From UHGV virus genome UHGV-0354376: 13,577 bases of DNA; one strand, written 5' to 3'. A model generated the notes under the pieces. That model worked only from the letters and a program-made list of their open reading frames with translations. It was not told the DNA's origin and did not search any database. The stretch comes from a virus. Positions 27 through 10,590 of this stretch are shown here, piece after piece; position 1 is the stretch's first letter, and every line of letters starts with the position of its first letter. The translations under genes were made by a program, and so were the position numbers.

Positions 27-1340
27 TTAACTTACTGATTTTAATAATCCTCCCGTACTGTTCTCGTGGCTATGGGGCATCAATGGGGCAAAATATGCCA
101 GCTTCTGATTCAGCATTGCGATCTGCTCTGCGCTGCTGTCAGCCATCCATGCACCGTAAACATTGAACACCATCTGCGCGCTCGCATGCCCCATCTGACT
201 GGCAATAAAACTCGGGTTTGCACCAGCAGATAATGACCAGCACGCATAGGTATGTCGTGACTGGTACGCCTTTCTGTGTCTAATCCCCGCGCGCTTTAGT
301 GCAGCTTCCCATGAGTCGCCTACTGAATCGACCCGGTAGATAAATCCGACCTGCTTACTGCGTCTGACCACATGCGGGTTAAAGACGAATGTACACTCAT
401 GGGTCACCGAACGACCGTACTCACGTAACTGCACTTCAATATGATATTGCCTGCCCAGCCTTGTCATTTCAGCCTGATTTTTCAGGATACTGATTGCGGG
501 CTGGATAAGATGCACCACTCGATCTGTACTTGCCTCGGTTTTCGGTAGAGTGAACTCACCAAGTTTCGTATAATTACGCCTGACGGTAATTGTTCCCGCT
601 TTCAGGTCGATATCTTCCCAGGCCAGGGAGACCAGTTCCCCGTGACGCATTCCTGTGTACACTGCTAATGACCACAGGTTTTTCGTCTGCTGATGCCGGC
701 ATGCATCTATCAGGCGAATAAATTCATCACGAGAAAGAGGATCTGGTTCTGCCCGGGCTTTTTTCAGAGGCTTAATTCCCTCGAATGGGTTCACCTCTAA
801 GTAACCGTGATCCGCAGCAAACTGAAACATTCCGGCCATTGTCGTCATGTAATAGTTCACAGTAACAACGCTTCGCCCTTTTGCCGGGGATTTGTTTTTC
901 GTCGGATTCTGGTAACCAATTAGCAAATCTTTCCTGAGATACAGCAATTCCTCTTTGGTTACTGCTGACGCTAGGCGATTACCTCCGATCCTCGGCACCA
1001 TATTCCTTGCGACAGACTCATAGCGATTGAATGCGTTCGCGCAGATTTCCATCCGTTTCAGATCCAGCCATTTTTCTTCAAGTTCTTTCACTGTAATGTC
1101 TTTTTTACTTACACCAAAAGCCTTGAGGTTAGGGGAGTCAGGAAACTGGGTTGCATAATCAAAGGTTCCTGTGCGGATGGCAAAACATACTGATGTCCGC
1201 AGTTCCCCGGCTATCTTCCTGTTCTTAGCGGTGTCAGGGACACCAAGACTTTCCCTGACACGCTTACCTTTAAAATTAAACCAGATGCGTAAAGTGCCAC
1301 CGTGGTTTTCGACGCCTGTTGGATATGTGGCTTTATCCAT
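27..1340 (-). CDS. int: Phage tyrosine integrase (lambda Int family site-specific recombinase)
   Basis: 437 aa ORF with the C-terminal catalytic signature of tyrosine recombinases (RHGEL...SRHTYACW...NVYGAW, i.e. Arg, His-x-x-Arg and Tyr nucleophile region) and an N-terminal arm-binding-like region. It sits at the edge of the prophage, directly downstream of an excisionase-like gene. Confidence 0.9.
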   Translation of the reverse strand: MDKATYPTGVENHGGTLRIWFNFKGKRVRESLGVPDTAKNRKIAGELRTSVCFAIRTGTFDYATQFPDSPNLKAFGVSKKDITVKELEEKWLDLKRMEICANAFNRYESVARNMVPRIGGNRLASAVTKEELLYLRKDLLIGYQNPTKNKSPAKGRSVVTVNYYMTTMAGMFQFAADHGYLEVNPFEGIKPLKKARAEPDPLSRDEFIRLIDACRHQQTKNLWSLAVYTGMRHGELVSLAWEDIDLKAGTITVRRNYTKLGEFTLPKTEASTDRVVHLIQPAISILKNQAEMTRLGRQYHIEVQLREYGRSVTHECTFVFNPHVVRRSKQVGFIYRVDSVGDSWEAALKRAGIRHRKAYQSRHTYACWSLSAGANPSFIASQMGHASAQMVFNVYGAWMADSSAEQIAMLNQKLAYFAPLMPHSHENSTGGLLKSVS

Positions 1341-1398
1341 TGGTGTTACCTCCAGACGCCCAAGAGCGATACGAGCTTACCTTTTTCATGGCATCAAA

Positions 1399-1635
1399 TC
1401 ACCCTGGCTGCTTGCTTTTCATTGAAGCGACCCAGGCATCTACAGCCTTTCTGTTATACATGCACTCACTGGAAGGTTTAGGATTCCCGTCAGGCGATAC
1501 GTGGATATACTCTCTCCCAACCATCCAGCATTCTTTTCTGGCTCGGAGGATGGTACCGGGTTTGAGCCCGGTAACCGCGATAAGAACGCTTTCACAAACC
1601 CACTCGTTGGGGGCTAACTGGAAAATATTGCTCAT
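1399..1635 (-). CDS. xis: Excisionase-like small DNA-binding protein (Xis)
   Basis: 78 aa basic ORF immediately upstream of int on the same strand, the typical xis-int arrangement. Call is from size, position and composition; family membership was not verified. Confidence 0.55.
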   Translation of the reverse strand: MSNIFQLAPNEWVCESVLIAVTGLKPGTILRARKECWMVGREYIHVSPDGNPKPSSECMYNRKAVDAWVASMKSKQPG

Positions 1636-1699
1636 GGTTATTTATCCATTACCCTGGCTGCACCCAGGGGAAATTACAGGTCGCTGCTGGTGGCCGGAA

Positions 1700-2077
1700 T
1701 CAACTTCTGCCAGATCGCGGCTTCGGTGCTGTTGGCTGGTCGCATCCCAGACATGGGCAAGGACACATATTTTCTGATTGCTGCCAGCGGAAATAACCTG
1801 TGCCACCGCAGTATTTACAGGTTGAACCATCCGGAATAACCGGAGAGTTGCCTGCCTTGCAACGATCCATCAGCGATTGAGCCGTTACCGTTAGCAGGTT
1901 TAAATCTGTTTCAGAGCCGTGCATTATCACTGCCAGGCGCGATAGCATAGCCCTTTCGCTAGCGCTCTTTCTTATTTCTCTATCAAGGTCAGCCTGGAGT
2001 TGAATAACCCACCGGGCAAGCTCTCCCTTTTCACCGCTTTCGCGCCGCATATCCTCCAAACGGTATTTATCAATCAT
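1700..2077 (-). CDS. Hypothetical phage protein with a Cys-rich C-terminus
   Basis: The ORF track extends to 2149, but the internal ATG at 2077 is preceded by GAGGA at a good spacing and overlaps the stop of the upstream gene (translational coupling). The C-terminus carries a CxxC...CPCPCLGC cysteine cluster. No family recognised. Confidence 0.45.
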   Translation of the reverse strand: MIDKYRLEDMRRESGEKGELARWVIQLQADLDREIRKSASERAMLSRLAVIMHGSETDLNLLTVTAQSLMDRCKAGNSPVIPDGSTCKYCGGTGYFRWQQSENMCPCPCLGCDQPTAPKPRSGRS

Positions 2078-2936
2078 TACTGTTATCCTCGCAGCAGTAG
2101 TGCCGCCCCTCTGAGTCAGTAGATACATGCCCGCAGATATCGCATTCAATTTCCGGAAGCATCAGTTCTGATTTCTCTTTGATATGCAGTCGCGGTTCTC
2201 CGTCTTTCGGCTCAGGCCATTCGCGCTGCTTATTCACCGCCAGCTTTTCCACCATCGCCTGGGTAATCTGCTCATCACTGATACCGGCACGACGTTGCGC
2301 ATCCCATAACAGGAATTGCATGTCAGCCCATTCGCTAAGGTCGCCTGGTTCAGCAGCAGCCTCGAGCGCTTCTTTGGAAAGGTGCTTCAGCGGACCAACT
2401 GGACCGACATTCCCGAAGGTGTCCTGTGACCACTTCGCGTGCTCCCTGCGTACCTGTTCGCGGTCATTGACGCTATCGGCGATAGCGAATACTTCGCGGA
2501 CCTCACAACCCTCACGAACGGCTTGATTTTTCCCGTGTTCGTCAATAAGTCCCAGCCAGTCACCGTTTACTGATTTGAATTGCCAGCCTGCCAATTCAAG
2601 GCTTTTTGCTGGCTGCGGGACGCGATATTTATCAACGATACGTGCCAGTGAGTTGAAGTTGATAAAAGGAACAGCCTGATGCCCCTTATAAATATCACTC
2701 CATTCCATTGCTGGCCCGCCAGAAACTTCAGCGACAGCATCACGTAGAGCATCAAAAGGCACAGGCTCAGCATCAAACGCTGCAATAACCCCATTAATCA
2801 CCTTCACAGCATCAGCCATTGCGTAGCCGAGATTACCGCCGTCGCTTTGTTTTGCTGCTTTGCTGAGTATTTCGCGTATCTGGTACAGGCGATCGAGTGA
2901 TACAAGACCGTTCGCCGGGTGGTTGTTAGTTGTCAT
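2070..2936 (-). CDS. Two-domain phage protein: N-terminal domain of unknown function fused to a MazG-like dATP/dGTP pyrophosphohydrolase (DUF550-type) C-terminal domain
   Basis: 288 aa ORF tightly packed in the operon. The C-terminal half (WSQDTFGNVGPVGPLKHLSKEALEAAAEPGDLSEWADMQFLLWD...) resembles, from memory, the DUF550/MazG-like nucleotide pyrophosphohydrolase domain common in prophage early regions. Confidence 0.6.
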   Translation of the reverse strand: MTTNNHPANGLVSLDRLYQIREILSKAAKQSDGGNLGYAMADAVKVINGVIAAFDAEPVPFDALRDAVAEVSGGPAMEWSDIYKGHQAVPFINFNSLARIVDKYRVPQPAKSLELAGWQFKSVNGDWLGLIDEHGKNQAVREGCEVREVFAIADSVNDREQVRREHAKWSQDTFGNVGPVGPLKHLSKEALEAAAEPGDLSEWADMQFLLWDAQRRAGISDEQITQAMVEKLAVNKQREWPEPKDGEPRLHIKEKSELMLPEIECDICGHVSTDSEGRHYCCEDNSND

Positions 2937-2939
2937 GGG

Positions 2940-3140
2940 TTAGCCCTCAACTTTGTTTCCGCAATGCGGGCAATAATTAAATTTTCTGGCGAATCCTGGG
3001 TGAGGGATGGCGTGCCTTTTCGTCTTCTCGTCCCAGTCAGTAATAACCTTTTCAAAACTGGCTAACGCATCAGCCCAATCATCAGAAAGAATCGGCCTTG
3101 CTCCAATCAAGCCGACAACACAGCGTCTGCATTTTTCCAC
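2940..3140 (-). CDS. Small zinc-ribbon protein (CxxC...CPHC)
   Basis: 66 aa ORF with two Cys pairs (CRRC near the N-terminus, CPHCG near the C-terminus). It is separated by 3-4 nt from both flanking genes on the same strand. Confidence 0.6.
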   Translation of the reverse strand: MEKCRRCVVGLIGARPILSDDWADALASFEKVITDWDEKTKRHAIPHPGFARKFNYCPHCGNKVEG

Positions 3141-3144
3141 CGAC

Positions 3145-3450
3145 TCACTCCCCCTTCACGCCAATGCCCGCGGCGCTTGCTGATTCTTCATGTGCGCGTT
3201 TAGCAGCGTTAAGTATTGCTGCCAGCGGCGTATATCCGCCGTCCATTCGAATTGTGTTGTGGATGGCGGCTATCGTGTCACGCAGTTTGCTGTGGCTCGC
3301 AGAAAGTTCATCTATGCGCTTCTCTGCGGATTCCAGCTCATCCAGCAGCGCCAGCACATCCTGAGTGGGAGCCCTAAAGTTCGGAATGAAGTTGTCTTTC
3401 GCTCTCTCTGCCGCTTCACGCAGCGCCGCACGTTTGTTGAGTGCTGTCAT
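3145..3450 (-). CDS. Hypothetical phage early protein, coiled-coil rich (Ea-like)
   Basis: 101 aa ORF with a strong RBS (AAGGAG about 8 nt upstream of the ATG at 3450). It is the first gene of the leftward operon; composition is alpha-helical and Ala/Glu/Leu rich. Confidence 0.6.
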   Translation of the reverse strand: MTALNKRAALREAAERAKDNFIPNFRAPTQDVLALLDELESAEKRIDELSASHSKLRDTIAAIHNTIRMDGGYTPLAAILNAAKRAHEESASAAGIGVKGE

Positions 3451-4015
3451 TGGGCTGCTCCTTGTCTGGCTCTGCTCAAGAGCTGGTTAAACATCATGGT
3501 CAGGCTGTTACTACACCCAAACGGCATATCGTTAACACGGTAAGTAGGAATTCCCTTGCGAACACCAGACTTCACGATCCGGCCGGTGCCATAGAGTTGC
3601 GATAATGCGCCATCCTCTTGCCCGGGTGGATTGGGTTATGAGCCCGTCGCCCGGTGATGCCCTTTTCTGTTGTGCCCTGAAAAAGGCTGGCGGTTACCGG
3701 ACAAACGGGAAAACACCGGGCCGCCAGAACAGGGAGTTACTTGTTATTGCTTTGGCCTGCTTTTAACCACATCAGGCGCGGTGGTAGGTATCTTCGGGCG
3801 GGGTGCTAAGGGGGTGATTAGCCCTTGCCCTTAACACTCCTGCTGGTTTTGGTATTCCTGGCTTGGGTATCGCCACCAGCTATAGGAATTTGACTACGAG
3901 TTGCGGTTAATCAGGCCGCGCCTCTGTTACCCCTCCCGAAGACACCTGTAAGCGAATCATCCGGTTATTCATATGCCACCGGCGGCTGTCTTGCCTGTTC
4001 GCAGCTGATGAATTA

Positions 4016-4044
4016 AATATACCTGTGAGTAATTTTTGTGTAAA
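4016..4044 (-). promoter_or_regulatory. Candidate leftward early promoter (pL-like): -35 TTTACA, 17 bp spacer, -10 TATATT on the minus strand
   Basis: Read from the reverse complement of 4016-4044. It lies in an AT-rich island and is flanked by copies of the TAAAT.ACCTGT motif that also occurs in the cI-cro intergenic region. Sequence-based prediction only. Confidence 0.3.
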
Positions 4045-4156
4045 TACCTGTTGGTATATTTTTATTTACCTTAATGGCAACTAATTGCTTTTAATTGGAT
4101 TTTATTTAAGTAGGCGAGGCGTGTTATGCTCAAAAAAACACCAGAAAGGGCTTGGT

Positions 4157-4363
4157 ATGGAACGTGACGAACTGGAAGAAGACCGTGCGGCATTCATAGC
4201 TGGCGAGATTGGCGGCGCAGTTGTCGAATTGATAATTGGCGGAGTAGTGATTGACCGTGATGCGATCGTCGATTGTTTGGAAAGAAAACGACGTGCGGTG
4301 GGTAATGTGATCCACAAAGGTGTTCTGCGTGACGCCGCTGCTATGGTGAGAAAAGGGCAGTAA
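4157..4363 (+). CDS. Small hypothetical protein (68 aa), acidic N-terminus and Gly/Val/Ile-rich core; moron-like gene convergent with the repressor
   Basis: The ORF track starts at a TTG at 4085; the in-frame ATG at 4157 has AAAGGG 8-9 nt upstream. Codon usage is enterobacterial-like. It is followed 1 nt after its stop by a strong hairpin and preceded by an AT-rich promoter-like region. The overlapping minus-strand ORFs are low complexity. Confidence 0.45.
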   Translation: MERDELEEDRAAFIAGEIGGAVVELIIGGVVIDRDAIVDCLERKRRAVGNVIHKGVLRDAAAMVRKGQ

Positions 4364-4364
4364 A

Positions 4365-4386
4365 AACCCGGCTCAGTGGCCGGGTT
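4365..4386. terminator. Bidirectional Rho-independent terminator hairpin between the convergent small gene and cI
   Basis: Perfect 8 bp inverted repeat AACCCGGC / GCCGGGTT with a 6 nt loop (TCAGTG). It is flanked by AAAAA on the 5' side (a U-tract for the minus-strand transcript) and a T-rich stretch on the 3' side. Confidence 0.55.
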
Positions 4387-4438
4387 AGATGTTATTTCTT
4401 AAAGAGTTAGGTCTGTTTCAACTATCCAAAGATAGCAG

Positions 4439-5149
4439 CTACAGTTTATTGTAAGCTATTGATTCATGGAGTAGAGCTTTACCCATGATATACAGTTGTT
4501 CCTGATTTTCTTCAGTTATATACCAGTCTTTGTACACTGGATTATCGGACAGCACTGCAAGCTGCAAGCCCTGCATTTGTAATCGCTTCACGTGGAAGTG
4601 TTGTCCGAAAACGAACGCATAAACACCGTCCACCTTGAAATTTCTTATCGAAATATCGAAAAACAACCTGTCACCAGACTGGATGGTTGGGCACATGCTG
4701 TCGCCATCTACAGTCATTACTTTAACGTCATCCTGAGAACGATTCCCGAAGAGTGAACGAGCGTGCTCAGTGGTGAACTCAATAGCGTGTAGAACCTCAA
4801 CAAACTCAGAAATCATGAAAGACCCTGGACCTGCACTCACAGTAAGATCGAGAACTTCTACACGATAAGTGTCGATATTGCGGGCGGGTACATCAATATC
4901 CATATTTGAGGTTGGGCCAAGACCATCCAACCATCCTCTGCTGATTTTCAAAGCATCTTCGATCTGCCGAGCCGCCTGTTCACCAATATTCCGCTTATTA
5001 GGTTTACCAACAGGGTAAAGCATCCGAGAGACAACAGTCGGATCAAGCCCTGCATTTTCAGCAAACTCTTTCTGGGTTTTATAGCGAGTTACCAACTCCT
5101 GAAGTTTGAGGCGTCGTAACTCGAAGATGTCAGGCGATTCAGTTTTCAT
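4439..5149 (-). CDS. CI-like prophage repressor (N-terminal HTH, C-terminal S24 LexA-like autopeptidase domain)
   Basis: 236 aa ORF with an N-terminal HTH-like region (QKEFAENAGLDPTVVSRM) and a C-terminal S24 peptidase signature (GDSM serine motif and a downstream Lys in HVKRL). It is divergent from a Cro-like gene across a 99 bp AT-rich region. The near-absence of an SD upstream of the ATG would fit a leaderless pRM-type transcript. Confidence 0.9.
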   Translation of the reverse strand: MKTESPDIFELRRLKLQELVTRYKTQKEFAENAGLDPTVVSRMLYPVGKPNKRNIGEQAARQIEDALKISRGWLDGLGPTSNMDIDVPARNIDTYRVEVLDLTVSAGPGSFMISEFVEVLHAIEFTTEHARSLFGNRSQDDVKVMTVDGDSMCPTIQSGDRLFFDISIRNFKVDGVYAFVFGQHFHVKRLQMQGLQLAVLSDNPVYKDWYITEENQEQLYIMGKALLHESIAYNKL

Positions 5150-5156
5150 AATTCCA

Positions 5157-5224
5157 TCTTACTTAAATTTACTTCAAGGTAAATGACCTGTGAGTATTGA
5201 CATGTATTTACTTAAAGGTATATT
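5157..5224. promoter_or_regulatory. Immunity switch region: candidate operator repeats overlapping a pR-like promoter (-35 TTGACA 5197-5202, 16 bp spacer, -10 TATATT 5219-5224)
   Basis: Three copies of TTACTT(A/C)AA, at about 5159, 5169 and 5208. Two form imperfect palindromes: TTTAC-TTCAAG-GTAAA (5168-5183) and TTTAC-TTAAAG-GTATA (5207-5222). The 11-mer ACCTGTGAGTA (5186-5196) sits immediately before the consensus -35. The cro ATG follows at 5249 with an AGGAGG RBS. Confidence 0.45.
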
Positions 5225-6760: not shown

Positions 6761-7722
6761 TTCAGTTACTTGATCGTCCAATTGCTTACAACCCGGCTTT
6801 TGCCAAGCTGAGAGTTGGCAAAGTTAAAGCTGGCCCGGTTGCGGCTGTTTTTCTTTCGCAGATGGTCTACTGGCATAACCGTATGGATGGCGGCTGGATG
6901 TATAAGACCCAGGCAGATATTGCCAGCGAGACTGCATTAACCCGTGATGAACAGGAAACGGCTCGCAAACGTCTGATACAGCTTGGCGTTCTGGAAGAAG
7001 ATCGCCGTGGTGTCCCAGCAACGATGCACTACCGCATTAATCCTGAACGCCTGGAAGCGCTGCTGCTCGAAACTACGCAGTCAGTGAAGAAGGCCGCACC
7101 TCAGAACAAAACCAGATTGCGGAACATCCAGAATGTGGAAATGCCGCAATCTGGATTGGTGCAGTCCCGCAAACTAGATTGCGGTGATTCCACAAACAAG
7201 GATGTGGATACCCCGCAAACAAGTATGGGACAACCCAACGAACAAGCCTGCGGGGATCCCACAAACTTTCATACAGGAGATTACACAGAGAATACTCAGG
7301 AGAGTACACAGGATAAAAAAACTTATTGTCCGGTTGCGGCGCAACCAGACCCTGAAGTTGTGATTACCGACCAGGCAATTTTGGTTCTGACCCATTTGAA
7401 CCAGATCAGCGGATCCAGGTATCAGAAATCCAAAACATCCCTGGAGAATATCCGCGCCCGACTGCGTGAGGGATACAGCGTTGCAGACCTGCAACTGGTT
7501 ATCGACCTGAAGCATGAGCACTGGCACGAGAACGACGAGCAGTACCAGTACATGCGCCCGGAAACGCTGTTCGGCCCGAAGAAATTCGAGAGCTATCTGC
7601 AAAGCGCTACCCGCTGGGAGCAGAAGGGACGGCCTAAACGCGCTGACTGGGGGGCGAAAAAGCGCGATGTGATGACTTTTGGTCCGGTTGATACAACGAT
7701 TCCTGCGGGGTTCAGAGGATGA
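6748..7722 (+). CDS. Phage replication initiation protein (O-like; N-terminal winged-helix domain, low-complexity linker, conserved phage C-terminal domain)
   Basis: The ATG at 6748 is preceded by AAGGAAGG (the ORF track starts at 6730). The C-terminal region (ILVLTHLNQISGSRYQKSKTSLENIRARLREGYSVADLQLVIDLKHEHW...) resembles, from memory, the conserved phage replication-protein C-terminal domain. The gene contains an internal iteron-like repeat cluster. Confidence 0.75.
   Translation: MGTLIQLLDRPIAYNPAFAKLRVGKVKAGPVAAVFLSQMVYWHNRMDGGWMYKTQADIASETALTRDEQETARKRLIQLGVLEEDRRGVPATMHYRINPERLEALLLETTQSVKKAAPQNKTRLRNIQNVEMPQSGLVQSRKLDCGDSTNKDVDTPQTSMGQPNEQACGDPTNFHTGDYTENTQESTQDKKTYCPVAAQPDPEVVITDQAILVLTHLNQISGSRYQKSKTSLENIRARLREGYSVADLQLVIDLKHEHWHENDEQYQYMRPETLFGPKKFESYLQSATRWEQKGRPKRADWGAKKRDVMTFGPVDTTIPAGFRG
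7114..7266. repeat. Iteron-like repeat cluster inside the replication gene (candidate phage origin)
   Basis: At least seven copies of an 8-9 bp motif in both orientations: AGATTGCGG at 7114-7122, its exact reverse complement CCGCAATCT at 7144-7152, the perfect inverted repeat CCGCAA-N6-TTGCGG at 7167-7184, CCGCAAAC again at about 7213, and CCACAAAC at about 7191 and 7259. A short A-rich tract follows (about 7313-7321). Analogous to the lambda ori iterons within gene O. Confidence 0.45.
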
Positions 7723-8600
7723 CGTTAAACAAATATTGCCAGGCGCTGGCGGCACTACGTAGCCATCCAGCCCACGAATTGAAAGAAGTTGGTGATCAGT
7801 GGCGGACACCGGATCTGCTTTTCTGGGGTATCAACGCGCTATTTGGGCCATTAGTTCTGGACTTGTTTGCTGACGACGACAACGCGAAGTGCCCGGCATG
7901 GTACACCGCCGAAGATAATGCGCTGACGCAGGACTGGTCTGAACGTCTTACAGAACTGGGTGGCGCTGGTTATGGCAACCCACCGTATAGCCGTTCGCAG
8001 TATCACGAGAAACAGGCGATCACCGGCATGACGCACATCATGAACTACGCAGCAACCCAGCGCGAAAAGGGCGGGCGTTATGTATTTCTGATAAAAGCTG
8101 CGCCGAGCGAAACGTGGTGGCCGGAAGATGCCGATCACATCGTATTCATCCGTGGGCGCATTGGGTTCGATCTGCCTGTGTGGTTTATACCTGCTGACGA
8201 AAAACAGAAGCCCACCAGCGCGTTTTTTGCCGGTGCCATAGCTGTATTCGATAAGTCATGGCGGGGTGAGCGGTTCAGCTATATCAACCGCACAGAACTG
8301 GAGGAAAAAGGGCGGGCATTTATGGCTTTGGCTCAATTCGCCGTTGGTAAAGAGCAAACAATCGCAATGCAGGCAGCCAGGGAACCAGCAGCAACACCGG
8401 AAGCTGAGTCACGTATCTGGCCTCTCGAGGTTGGTCTGGTGTTCAACCAGGTGGAAGGCGTTGACGTATTGAGTGAGGCTCAGCAGAACAAGCTGAAAGC
8501 CAACATCAATCAACTCTGGCTGGAACGAACGGCCACCAGCGAAATCATCACAATTGCGCGTGGTCTTGTCGGCAGCATGCAGGGGGTAACCCATGCGTGA
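7719..8600 (+). CDS. Phage DNA N6-adenine methyltransferase (Dam family)
   Basis: 293 aa ORF with the N6-adenine MTase catalytic motif NPPY (GYGNPPYSRS) and N-terminal conserved residues (WRTPDLLF, DLFADDDN) as in phage Dam-family enzymes. Start and stop overlap the neighbouring genes (ATGA). Confidence 0.9.
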   Translation: MTLNKYCQALAALRSHPAHELKEVGDQWRTPDLLFWGINALFGPLVLDLFADDDNAKCPAWYTAEDNALTQDWSERLTELGGAGYGNPPYSRSQYHEKQAITGMTHIMNYAATQREKGGRYVFLIKAAPSETWWPEDADHIVFIRGRIGFDLPVWFIPADEKQKPTSAFFAGAIAVFDKSWRGERFSYINRTELEEKGRAFMALAQFAVGKEQTIAMQAAREPAATPEAESRIWPLEVGLVFNQVEGVDVLSEAQQNKLKANINQLWLERTATSEIITIARGLVGSMQGVTHA

Positions 8601-10590
8601 GATTATCGTTGATAACTTTGCTGGTGGCGGTGGCGCATCAACGGGTATTGAACTGGCAATAGGGCGCAGCGTGGATATTGCGATCAACCACGACGAAAAC
8701 GCCATTGCGATGCACAAGACGAACCACCCGGACACACTGCATTATTGTGAATCCGTATTTGACGTGGATCCGGTAGCCGCCACCGGCGGCAATCCTGTTG
8801 GCCTGGCATGGTTTAGCCCGGACTGCCGACACTTCTCAAAGGCCAAAGGCGCAAAGCCTGTGAAAAAAGAGATACGAGGTCTGGCCTGGATTGTTCTGCG
8901 ATGGGCACTGGCGAAGCGACCGCGCGTGATGATGCTGGAGAACGTGGAAGAGTTCAAAACCTGGGGACCGTTAATTGACATCCCGCCTAAACCTGATTTG
9001 TCGGAAGCCCTTATAGGGGATTTTATTGGCCCAGTTTACCCTGGCAATAGTCGCCCAGACCCTGCCCGCGCTGGCGAAACATTCAATGCTTTTGTCGGTA
9101 TGCTTTCCACTGGCATTCCTGCCGATCACTCGGCACTGTCAGAGGTTTGTGAGTTTCTGTCTATTGAAAGAGGTAGCGAGCAGGCGCAACAGCTGGTGGA
9201 TGGGCTTGGATATGATGTTGATTATCGCGAACTACGCGCGTGTGATTACGGCGCGCCGACGATCCGCAAACGCTTCTTCATGGTTATGCGCTGCGATGGC
9301 TGCCCAATCCAGTGGCCTGCTGTTACCCATGGGGATCCTAAGTCTCTGGAGGTGCAGAGCGGCAGGCTGATGCCATGGCGTACCGCTGCGGAATGTATCG
9401 ACTGGAATGTTCCGGCTCTGTCCATCTTCGACCGCAAAAAACCGCTGGCAGAGAACACTCTGAAGCGGATCGCACGCGGCATACAGCGCTTTGTTATCGA
9501 AAGTGCGTCGCCGTTTATCGTGAAGTGCAACCACACGAGCTCAAAAAATGCGTATGACGCTTTTCGCGGACAGTCACTGAATGAGCCATTACAGACCATT
9601 ACTAAAAAACTCGGCTACGCGTTAGCCGTTCCACACCTTACAAAATTCCGCACTGGCGCAACCGGGCAGCCCGTTACCGAACCTGTTCCGACGGTAACCG
9701 CTGGCACGTCAAAACGCCCGGGCGGGAACGGGCATGCTCTCGGGATTGTTGAGGCTGCATTGACACCATTCCTGGCGGGTAATGGTGGTAGTGAATACCA
9801 GGCTAAACCGCGCCCGCTGAATAAACCTGCTCATACCATTCTGAAGCAATCCCGAGCCTGTCTTGTTGCGCCAGTGATAGCCCGCCAGTTTGGGGCCAGC
9901 GTCGGCCACCGTGCAGACGAACCGAGCGCAACCATCACCGCTGGTGGTGGCGGTAAATCTCAACTGGTAACGCCTACGCTGATCCAGATGGGTTATGGCG
10001 AACGACCTGGACAAGAACCGCGTGTGCTGCGGCTGGATAACCCGCTGGGGACCGTTACTGCAGGCGGAAATAAATTTGCGACGGTGAGCGCATTCCTGGC
10101 GAAACACTACGGCGGTAACTATACGGGGCCGGGTGTCAGTATGGATGAACCCGCGCATTCAGTGACCACTGTCGACCATCATGCGGTAGTTGCCTCTCAT
10201 CTGGTGAAACTGCGTGGAACATGCCGCGACGGGCAACGCCTTGATGTGCCAATGCCAACAATCACTGCTGGTGGCCAACACGTGGGTGAGGTACGCACAT
10301 TTCTCGAGACGTATTGCGGGGAAAGTGACGATGAATGGCTGGTAACGATCGATGGGGTTAAATACCAGATCGTTGATATCGGAATGCGCATGTTGCAGCC
10401 GCATGAACTCTACAAAGCGCAGGGCTTCCCGGATGGATACGTTATTGATCAGGACTACCGTGGAAATCGCTATGCAAAAGATAAGCAGGTAGCCCGCTGC
10501 GGTAATGCGGTACCACCACCATTCGCCCGGGCGCTGGTTGAGGCAAATCTTCCGGAACTGTGTGCAGTGCAACAGCAGGAGGTGGCATGA
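8593..10590 (+). CDS. DNA cytosine-5 methyltransferase, large (665 aa), with an extended variable/target-recognition region
   Basis: C5-MTase motifs are visible: motif I FAGGGG, the catalytic Cys region SPDCRHFS, motif VI MLENVEEF (ENV), and a motif VIII-like PTIRKRFFMV. AGGGGG RBS 6 nt upstream. Stop overlaps the rusA start. Confidence 0.85.
   Translation: MREIIVDNFAGGGGASTGIELAIGRSVDIAINHDENAIAMHKTNHPDTLHYCESVFDVDPVAATGGNPVGLAWFSPDCRHFSKAKGAKPVKKEIRGLAWIVLRWALAKRPRVMMLENVEEFKTWGPLIDIPPKPDLSEALIGDFIGPVYPGNSRPDPARAGETFNAFVGMLSTGIPADHSALSEVCEFLSIERGSEQAQQLVDGLGYDVDYRELRACDYGAPTIRKRFFMVMRCDGCPIQWPAVTHGDPKSLEVQSGRLMPWRTAAECIDWNVPALSIFDRKKPLAENTLKRIARGIQRFVIESASPFIVKCNHTSSKNAYDAFRGQSLNEPLQTITKKLGYALAVPHLTKFRTGATGQPVTEPVPTVTAGTSKRPGGNGHALGIVEAALTPFLAGNGGSEYQAKPRPLNKPAHTILKQSRACLVAPVIARQFGASVGHRADEPSATITAGGGGKSQLVTPTLIQMGYGERPGQEPRVLRLDNPLGTVTAGGNKFATVSAFLAKHYGGNYTGPGVSMDEPAHSVTTVDHHAVVASHLVKLRGTCRDGQRLDVPMPTITAGGQHVGEVRTFLETYCGESDDEWLVTIDGVKYQIVDIGMRMLQPHELYKAQGFPDGYVIDQDYRGNRYAKDKQVARCGNAVPPPFARALVEANLPELCAVQQQEVA

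Follow-up and report, generated by a model that had tools for sequence, protein, structure and literature searches.

Two members of the DUF550 family have been characterised so far, both from phages. MazZ of S-2L, a bare domain of 105 residues, is specific for (d)GTP and leaves dZTP unhydrolysed, and its structure in complex with dGDP and three Mn2+ ions has been solved at 1.43 Å (7ODY; PMC8342488). The protein of the Acinetobacter phage SH-Ab 15497, a DUF5664+DUF550 fusion that is the source of the current Pfam name, was reported to hydrolyse dATP and dGTP, and DUF5664 alone acts as a deoxynucleoside triphosphate (dNTP) pyrophosphohydrolase in a related phage (PMC12884076). Depletion of (p)ppGpp, with protection against TIR-STING and retron-TIR, has been described for Atd1, a MazG-like protein of a phage (bioRxiv 10.1101/2022.06.09.495361). 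Here we describe a 288-residue DUF550 protein encoded in UHGV virus genome UHGV-0354376, the analysed stretch of which, 13,577 nucleotides (nt) long, is referred to as the window. Its gene belongs to the EaA family named after the phage P22 protein, a mosaic, “beads-on-a-string” arrangement of modules around a conserved MazZ/DUF550 core.

Family, fold and chemistry have all been described before, and public annotation names such genes DUF550 or dATP/dGTP pyrophosphohydrolase; what is new is the architectural combination of the window gene within a very common family. The core is 75% identical to P22 eaA over residues 153-265. In P22 the gene order is ead-eai-eaA-eaG-eaC-xis-int, and in the window it is an Ea22-like gene, a zinc ribbon, the DUF550 gene, a gene for a 125-residue protein, xis and int, so that both hallmarks of the P22 EaA family, a related core and an operon position before xis and int, are found here. 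We consider it reasonably probable that the protein is, in full, an EaA-family purine nucleoside triphosphate (NTP) pyrophosphohydrolase with swappable accessory modules, serving to manipulate the host purine pool in early lytic development.

The enzyme core

The gene and its core occupy the following positions.

2070..2936, − strand: complete EaA-type gene, 288 codons (ATG at 2936, TGA at 2070-2072; from the open reading frame (ORF) list and its translation)
2175..2465, − strand: DUF550/MazZ-type all-alpha NTP pyrophosphohydrolase core, residues 158-254 (metal ligands E189, E192, E202 and D205)

A GAGGG Shine-Dalgarno site lies 7 nt 5′ of the ATG. The identical 288-residue protein is recorded in 37 blocks of public assemblies, so this is a genuine gene and a chance ORF is excluded. 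An earlier reading made from the letters alone (the sequence-only reading) had drawn the gene in the same place and had assigned its product to the MazG-like or DUF550 pyrophosphohydrolases, an assignment that holds at the levels of sequence, fold and active site. A Pfam scan, one of the checks it had suggested, matched residues 163-257 to PF04447 (DUF550 / dATP-dGTP_PPHyd; E=5.9e-42) across profile positions 2-96 of 97, with 142.3 bits against a cut-off of 23. S-2L MazZ scores 44 bits on PF04447; the DUF550 domain of the SH-Ab 15497 protein reaches 33 bits compared with the 142 bits of the window protein.

The core has the MazG/HisE four-helix fold and an intact metal tetrad. A first AlphaFold2 (AF2) model, built from 67 close homologues, had a mean predicted local distance difference test (pLDDT) score of 58 and drew no significant match in Foldseek, a problem of poor modelling that was solved in a second model by the addition of 120 distant DUF550 sequences. 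Searches of the PDB, with the single sequence and with a close-family profile, gave only marginal matches to MazZ (E=0.065 and 0.38). Neither PF03819, the profile of canonical MazG, nor PF12643 or PF01503 matched the protein at E<=1, and its relation to canonical MazG is one of superfamily and fold only. NCBIfam gave no match for the 288-residue protein or its neighbours, and the PADLOC defence models none for the protein or its four neighbours.

The active site was examined in a three-way alignment of the window protein, S-2L MazZ and the SH-Ab 15497 enzyme. The MazZ metal ligands E35, E38, E50 and D53 correspond to E189, E192, E202 and D205, and R83, which acts at the beta-phosphate and transition state, to R238. 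Within the pocket, W15 and L57 are matched by W169 and L209; D60, which contacts N2 of guanine (the 2-amino group), by D212; and the residues contributed by the second chain, K76, N80, W85, R94 and H95, by K231, N235, W240, R249 and H251. Altogether, 13 of 21 pocket and metal residues of MazZ are identical. All residues reported as conserved in MazZ-1 are kept apart from I56, which is F208 here, and the determinants of guanine specificity are accordingly divided, D60 being retained as D212 and I56 replaced; H166, S170 and F174, which also line the base, differ from MazZ as well.

Among 149 diverse family members, conservation is 90% or higher at E189, E192, D199, E202, D205, L209, D212, G218, A227, K231, N235, R238 and W240, and close family members show no variation at R249 and H251. 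Compared with 33 homologous DNA segments, the ratio of replacement to synonymous differences per site (pN/pS; Nei-Gojobori) of the core is 0.02-0.29, with synonymous differences up to saturation; the core evolves under strong purifying selection. On all this evidence together, catalytic activity is very probable: the core would be a metal-dependent NTP pyrophosphohydrolase whose purine pocket most probably takes guanine.

A mosaic protein

The sequence-only reading had seen a single N-terminal domain of about 130 residues. A separate N-terminal region does exist, but it is about 157 residues long and consists of three modules that are exchanged independently; a 34-residue Cys/His-rich C-terminal tail, absent from that reading, is also present. 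Module limits were set by alignments, module-wise BLAST and DNA alignment, the last of which places the breakpoints at short conserved linkers (...DAEPV, ...YRxxQPAK and ...HIKE). Five pieces recombine independently: A (residues 1-56), B (57-105), C (106-157), the DUF550 core and the tail (255-288).

2769..2936, − strand: module A, residues 1-56, N-terminal helical-hairpin “head” (AF2 helices 14-30 and 35-54, pLDDT 85-93)
2622..2768, − strand: module B, residues 57-105, small and probably helical (pLDDT 48-68, low)
2466..2621, − strand: module C, residues 106-157, small beta-beta-alpha-beta module (pLDDT 86-89)
2070..2174, − strand, stop codon included: tail, residues 255-288, putative zinc knuckle (C264-x2-C267-x-H269 ... 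H278-x-C280-C281)

Among the best 120 full-length hits, 78 consist of C and the core, 32 of A, core and tail, and four of C, core and tail; rarer architectures are B+C+core (two), A+C+core (two), A+B+C+core (one) and A+B+core (one), and the combination seen in the window occurs in none of the 120. Module C is present in 87 of these hits, each time directly N-terminal of DUF550, and the tail, with the motif ECDICGH...HYCC, is a separate module in 36. The distribution of module B is narrow, being mostly confined to Citrobacter-type prophages, and neither A nor DUF550 need accompany it. The head, module A, occurs on proteins with DUF550 and on others without it, among them DUF551, Lar or unannotated proteins. 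Searching with residues 1-158 alone returned 1,865 proteins, in which A, A+B or B also form the N-terminal part of proteins lacking DUF550; in some of these DUF551 or a Lar restriction-alleviation zinc ribbon is present, and in most Pfam recognises no further family.

The values of pN/pS are 0.06 for module B (against locus L042), 0.08-0.09 for module C and 0.14-0.49 for the tail, and this purifying selection marks all three as real protein modules. The tail (EIECxICG[H/C]...GRHYCCEDNS; window 2073-2174) also ends an unrelated CPRC...CRNC zinc-ribbon protein without DUF550 in Kluyvera georgiana (L047:3860-4160). In that copy H269 is replaced by Cys, the swap expected of a metal ligand, for which reason the tail is read as a small zinc knuckle, and its recurrence suggests a portable one.

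No significant structural or profile match was found for modules A, B and C or the tail in Pfam, PDB profiles or Foldseek. The top PDB profile match of module C, though marginal (E=0.015-0.3, residues 101-149, nt ~2490-2636), was a segment of a class V cysteine desulfurase; it covers a 30-residue strand-turn-helix with no shared catalytic context and was judged a chance match. A resemblance of the same module to a GYF domain (Foldseek E>=3.6 over 41 columns) was not significant. Internal DNA repeats were also considered as recombination joints and discarded, as positions 1300-4400 hold only chance-level repeats of 14-15 nt.

Module A evolves unusually. In five comparisons its pN/pS is 0.56-1.54 with a pS of only 0.07-0.14 (2-5 synonymous and 9-14 replacement differences), whereas the DUF550 part in two of the same loci has a pS of 0.29 and 0.43 and a pN/pS of 0.15 and 0.21. 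Possible explanations include a 5′ end that is repeatedly homogenised as a recombination anchor, constraint at the nucleic-acid (mRNA) level at a coupled translation start, or a loosely constrained hairpin on which selection is relaxed or diversifying; coming from such small counts, the pattern is no more than a lead.

Distribution of the family

The core is widespread, with tblastn placing it in 484 phage records, 365 of them Klebsiella phages that include the lytic Webervirus, where it lies among small early genes. In an exhaustive search of 1.84 billion cluster representatives, 4,137 clusters passed a threshold of E<=1e-3, and 523 one of E<=1e-30. These clusters are defined at 50% identity and split even where the cores are ~75-95% identical, which means that it is the flanks that separate them. 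Across 269 sampled proteins, the N-terminal extension varies from 7 to 276 residues (median 135) and the C-terminal one from 0 to 253 (median 72). Pfam recognises DUF551 in 17 of 150 representatives, Lar in two and an Rv0078B-like segment in one, the other flanks being without a Pfam family. DUF551 (PF04448) has no Pfam match in the window protein, and its presence in only those 17 shows that it is not universal in the P22 EaA family. Outside the Enterobacteriaceae, where the search was seeded with three distant DUF550 domains, the best hits are mostly bare proteins of 94-182 residues. The named close relatives of the gene are mostly from Citrobacter; a megablast match to it exists in 66 of 5,426 complete E. 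coli genomes, full-length in none, and the best E. coli matches to the window cover at most 39% of it, so that an origin of the window in E. coli is rejected.

Such extreme variability of the flanks (the ranges above and 523 clusters at E<=1e-30) around a constant core raises the question of whether the core is catalytically irrelevant, an oligomerisation or nucleotide-binding platform for variable modules that carry the function. A pure scaffold, however, would not need the catalytic residues, all of which are invariant or nearly so, and the shortest members outside the Enterobacteriaceae are bare domains of 94-120 residues. We therefore regard this explanation as very improbable.

Two gene neighbourhoods were noted in other genomes. 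Several other prophages have a gene for an Rv2179c-like 3′-5′ exoribonuclease (PF16473) downstream of the DUF550 gene, either immediately or with a DUF551 gene in between, and just before the excisionase and integrase genes (L050:3983-4546, L051:3983-4546, L052:4393-4968 and L053:4190-4765); the exoribonuclease gene is absent from this window, and the two could form a recurrent nucleotide- or RNA-directed pair. In the Pseudomonas phage Baskent_P6 (L049:3812-4971), a DUF550 protein that is likewise 288 residues long is encoded directly upstream of a DUF4406 gene and downstream of two large DNA methyltransferase genes. DUF4406 we take to be related to the nucleoside deoxyribosyltransferases.

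Operon and prophage context

Pfam scans of the window ORFs revealed a lambdoid prophage layout.

27-1340, − strand: integrase (Pfam scan)
1399-1635, − strand: DUF1233 excisionase, xis (Pfam scan)
1700..2077, − strand: gene for a 125-residue protein with a conserved head, the linker “KAGNSPVIPDG” and a CxxCGGTG/CPCPC zinc-finger-like end
2940..3140, − strand: gene for a 66-residue zinc ribbon (CRRC ... CPHC), GTG start, with full-length homologues
3145..3450, − strand: gene for a 101-residue coiled-coil protein, weakly Ead/Ea22-like (PF13935, 26.5 bits, just below the cut-off of 27)
4016..4044, − strand: pL-like sigma-70 promoter candidate (TTTACA-17-TATATT, 10/12 consensus matches; consensus only)
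4439-5149, − strand: S24 (cI-like) repressor (Pfam scan)
5197-5224, + strand: pR-like promoter (consensus match only)

The accessory genes lie on the − strand between xis and the S24 repressor, and the order of int, xis, accessory genes and repressor bears out the placement, proposed from the sequence alone, in the variable early-left accessory region beside xis. The + strand encodes cro/cII-like proteins, a Phg_2220_C replication protein, Dam and C5 methyltransferases, RusA, an antirepressor, DUF968 and a Q-like DUF1133 protein (Pfam).

The stop codon of the upstream zinc-ribbon ORF (TAA, 2940-2942) ends 3 nt short of the ATG of the 288-residue gene, and the start of the downstream 125-residue ORF (ATG, 2077) overlaps its TGA by 8 nt (ATGATTGA), a packing of the three genes that is typical of a single, translationally coupled operon. 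The promoter candidate at 4016..4044 would drive the entire leftward operon; a consensus scan found no further promoter-like sites on the − strand between it and the 288-residue gene. An Rfam search of the whole window gave no match to an RNA family.

Downstream, the 125-residue gene follows the identical 288-residue gene in all six loci shown. It is itself a mosaic: another prophage (L013:5539-5991) has its first ~75 residues and “AGNSPV(I/T)PD” linker joined to DUF551, and here it ends in a DnaJ-like CxxCGGTG and a CPCPCLGC cysteine cluster; searches of Pfam, NCBIfam and PADLOC, and tblastn against phage genomes, gave no match. The six loci (L004-L009) place the identical cassette at two chromosomal sites, one on the yecE/cmoAB/argS side, with a DUF72/yecE-like neighbour, and one in the dinF-lexA-dgkA-plsB region, and their prophages differ in repressors, immunity regions and replication genes. 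The 288-residue and 125-residue genes therefore move between lambdoid backbones as a unit. Upstream, the zinc-ribbon ORF is matched over its full length, at 44-66% identity, by homologues in Cronobacter, Morganella, Yersinia, Hafnia and jumbo Pseudomonas phages, and is left uncalled in six public contigs that carry the region; it is a real, unannotated small gene. The coiled-coil gene beyond it is flagged as “faint” in public loci.

Two further features of the prophage lie outside the early-left operon. An ORF for 92 residues (80 in public contigs) at 4085-4386 on the + strand runs counter to the operon in the stretch that separates the repressor gene from the pL-like promoter, and ends in a strong, hairpin terminator-like site (4365-4386), a moron-like layout; Pfam and PADLOC gave no family match for it. 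Tandem DNA methyltransferase genes with an 8-nt overlap (7719-10590, + strand) encode a 293-residue Dam-type N6-adenine enzyme and a 665-residue protein, in which the best stretch matching the C5-cytosine methylase profile is confined to the first ~120 residues.

This context also bears on whether the gene could belong to a 2-aminoadenine (Z) genome pathway, as a MazZ that supplies dGMP to PurZ, a reading suggested by the Pfam family that it has in common with MazZ and the SH-Ab 15497 DUF550 enzyme. Its positional homologue is instead eaA of P22, a phage with ordinary DNA. The genomes of S-2L and SH-Ab 15497 have mazZ immediately next to purZ and datZ, whereas neither PurZ (adenylosuccinate-synthetase-like) nor DatZ (HD phosphohydrolase) is present among the window ORFs or in the flanks of the six identical-gene loci. 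The DUF550 proteins of Z-phages are, moreover, monophyletic within the viral DUF550 homologues (PMC12884076). The chance that the gene serves this pathway is negligible, and the reading can be ruled out for practical purposes.

Proposed function

By analogy with MazZ, the protein would form a dimer or tetramer with active sites shared between two chains, and would convert a purine (d)NTP to the monophosphate and pyrophosphate using two to three Mg2+ or Mn2+ ions. It would most probably act on (d)GTP and perhaps, like the enzyme of SH-Ab 15497, on dATP too. Transcription is expected from the repressor-controlled leftward early promoter, so that the enzyme would act at an early point of induction or infection rather than in the lysogen. 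The pieces that flank the core, namely head A, modules B and C and the tail, would be non-catalytic accessories, for oligomerisation, partner binding or zinc binding, that recombination would swap freely among related prophages. The pay-off would most likely be manipulation of the host purine-nucleotide pool in early lytic development. The retained MazZ-like pocket, largely buried in the MazZ structure (PMC8342488), points more directly to ordinary (d)GTP/dATP than to cyclic oligonucleotides as substrates.

Several points weigh against this proposal. Eight pocket positions depart from MazZ: I12->H166, I16->S170, N20->F174, K31->H185, E34->K188, I56->F208, A92->E247 and M93->P248. I16, N20 and A92 are peculiar to S-2L, and E34 is not conserved (PMC8342488). 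Several of the replaced positions are invariant within the EaA group, and the true substrate may for that reason differ from (d)GTP. As the reported SH-Ab 15497 activity came from the fusion, and DUF5664 is a dNTPase by itself, the “dATP” of the Pfam name may not belong to DUF550. We know of no enzymology on lambdoid EaA-type proteins, and a specific function for EaA or DUF550 in lambdoid phages was not found in the literature. What a phage with ordinary DNA would gain from destroying (d)GTP is not obvious. The promoter is assigned by a consensus match, and we infer both the oligomeric state and the timing of expression.

The pocket differences bear in particular on house-cleaning, the classical role of all-alpha NTP pyrophosphohydrolases such as MazG, iMazG and their relatives. 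Here the enzyme would prefer non-canonical purine (d)NTPs (8-oxo-dGTP, dITP/dXTP) or purine analogues made by defence systems, the removal of which would protect phage replication. The EaA-invariant H166, S170, F174 and F208, all of which differ from MazZ, are compatible with another base preference; several house-cleaning enzymes are among the structural neighbours; and the Baskent_P6 DUF550 gene adjoins DUF4406 and DNA methyltransferase genes. A link to defence-made nucleotides was nevertheless not found in the literature, and the two characterised members of the family act on canonical dGTP/GTP (and dATP). House-cleaning is, on this evidence, an unlikely role, about as probable as the alarmone role considered next.

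A role in counter-defence or stress signalling has also to be weighed, in which the DUF550 core would hydrolyse (p)ppGpp, an activity that has been reported both for Atd1 and for E. coli MazG, and would either block alarmone-dependent abortive infection or lift the inhibition by ppGpp of lambdoid lytic development in starved cells. Atd1, through its depletion of (p)ppGpp and anti-TIR protection, is the precedent (bioRxiv 10.1101/2022.06.09.495361), and the Asp that contacts guanine N2, D212, is kept. The early-left region is where P22 keeps the anti-RecBCD genes abc1/abc2 and related phages their ral-type anti-restriction genes (PMC8022706), and Lar restriction-alleviation modules occur within the same mosaic family. 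By precedent, position and the presence of Lar, then, an anti-defence role is plausible. Hydrolysis of an alarmone, however, would have to be reconciled with the lack of a PF03819 match at E<=1 and of any PADLOC match, and with the nearly complete burial of the nucleotide in MazZ (PMC8342488), which leaves little obvious room for a 3′-diphosphate; an experimental link between DUF550 and alarmones was not found in the literature searched. We consider this explanation rather unlikely.

A broader and more speculative view, to which we give a low probability, is that EaA-type proteins are a combinatorial counter-defence toolkit, an invariant purine-nucleotide pyrophosphohydrolase being re-targeted or regulated by rapidly exchanged mini-domains so as to destroy a defence-relevant guanine or purine nucleotide. 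The mini-domains may comprise heads, small alpha/beta modules, zinc knuckles, DUF551 and Lar-type anti-restriction ribbons, and the target may be (p)ppGpp, or else a modified purine (d)NTP that a defence system makes, instead of bulk dGTP. Were this so, the evolution of head A (pN/pS of ~1 with conserved synonymous sites) would be the mark of an arms race or of a dedicated anchor for recombination.

Implications and comparison with known systems

Genes of the DUF550/EaA type are very common, being present in the model phage P22 and in hundreds of Klebsiella phages, a group considered for therapy. Their only characterised relatives work in the pathway to the DNA base 2-aminoadenine, which EaA phages lack. 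An intact, MazZ-like active site under strong purifying selection, together with the module map, makes the question of what an NTP pyrophosphohydrolase does in ordinary phages experimentally tractable. Should the answer be counter-defence or alarmone control, a widespread enzyme class would join the phage-host conflict repertoire; should it be simple pool tuning, the finding would be ordinary. The module map may also serve as an example of domain-level mosaicism within a single phage gene.

In relation to the characterised enzymes, the window protein is ~28% identical to S-2L MazZ, with which it shares the metal ligands and the equivalents of R83, K76, N80, W85, D60, R94 and H95. It differs in the eight pocket positions, in having ~157 residues of N-terminal modules and a Cys/His tail, and in its setting, as mazZ lies between purZ and datZ and feeds 2-aminoadenine synthesis, whereas the window gene is in a lambdoid early-left operon. 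The SH-Ab 15497 enzyme has the DUF550 domain and the conserved catalytic residues in common with it, as well as an aromatic residue at one pocket position (Tyr in SH-Ab 15497, F174 in the window protein, N20 in MazZ), but carries an N-terminal DUF5664 domain (PF18909) that the window protein lacks. Atd1, compared by description only, is said to have a canonical MazG-like catalytic domain and comes from a lytic Pectobacterium phage; no PF03819 match is seen in the window protein.

The closest counterpart is P22 EaA, which is likewise encoded at the distal end of the early-left operon just before xis/int and follows the same head-linker-core grammar; the “Eaa1” and “EaA-like” proteins of Klebsiella, Salmonella and Citrobacter phages are grouped with it. 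P22 EaA (317 residues) has a different head, neither B nor C, DUF550 at residues 83-179 and DUF551 at 255-316, whereas B, C and a terminal Cys/His tail are all present in the window protein, whose gene is followed by a separate, overlapping one. Ea22 of lambda and Shiga toxin (Stx) phages occupies the same neighbourhood and is also a mosaic, built from an N-terminal part common to its members, a coiled coil and C-terminal domains, DUF551 among them, that can replace one another (PMC10834534). It differs in lacking the DUF550 core and in its reported role, which is pro-lysogenic and exerted through a host partner. Set beside Ea22 and P22 EaA, the shuffling of modules around a near-invariant core is noteworthy but not unprecedented.

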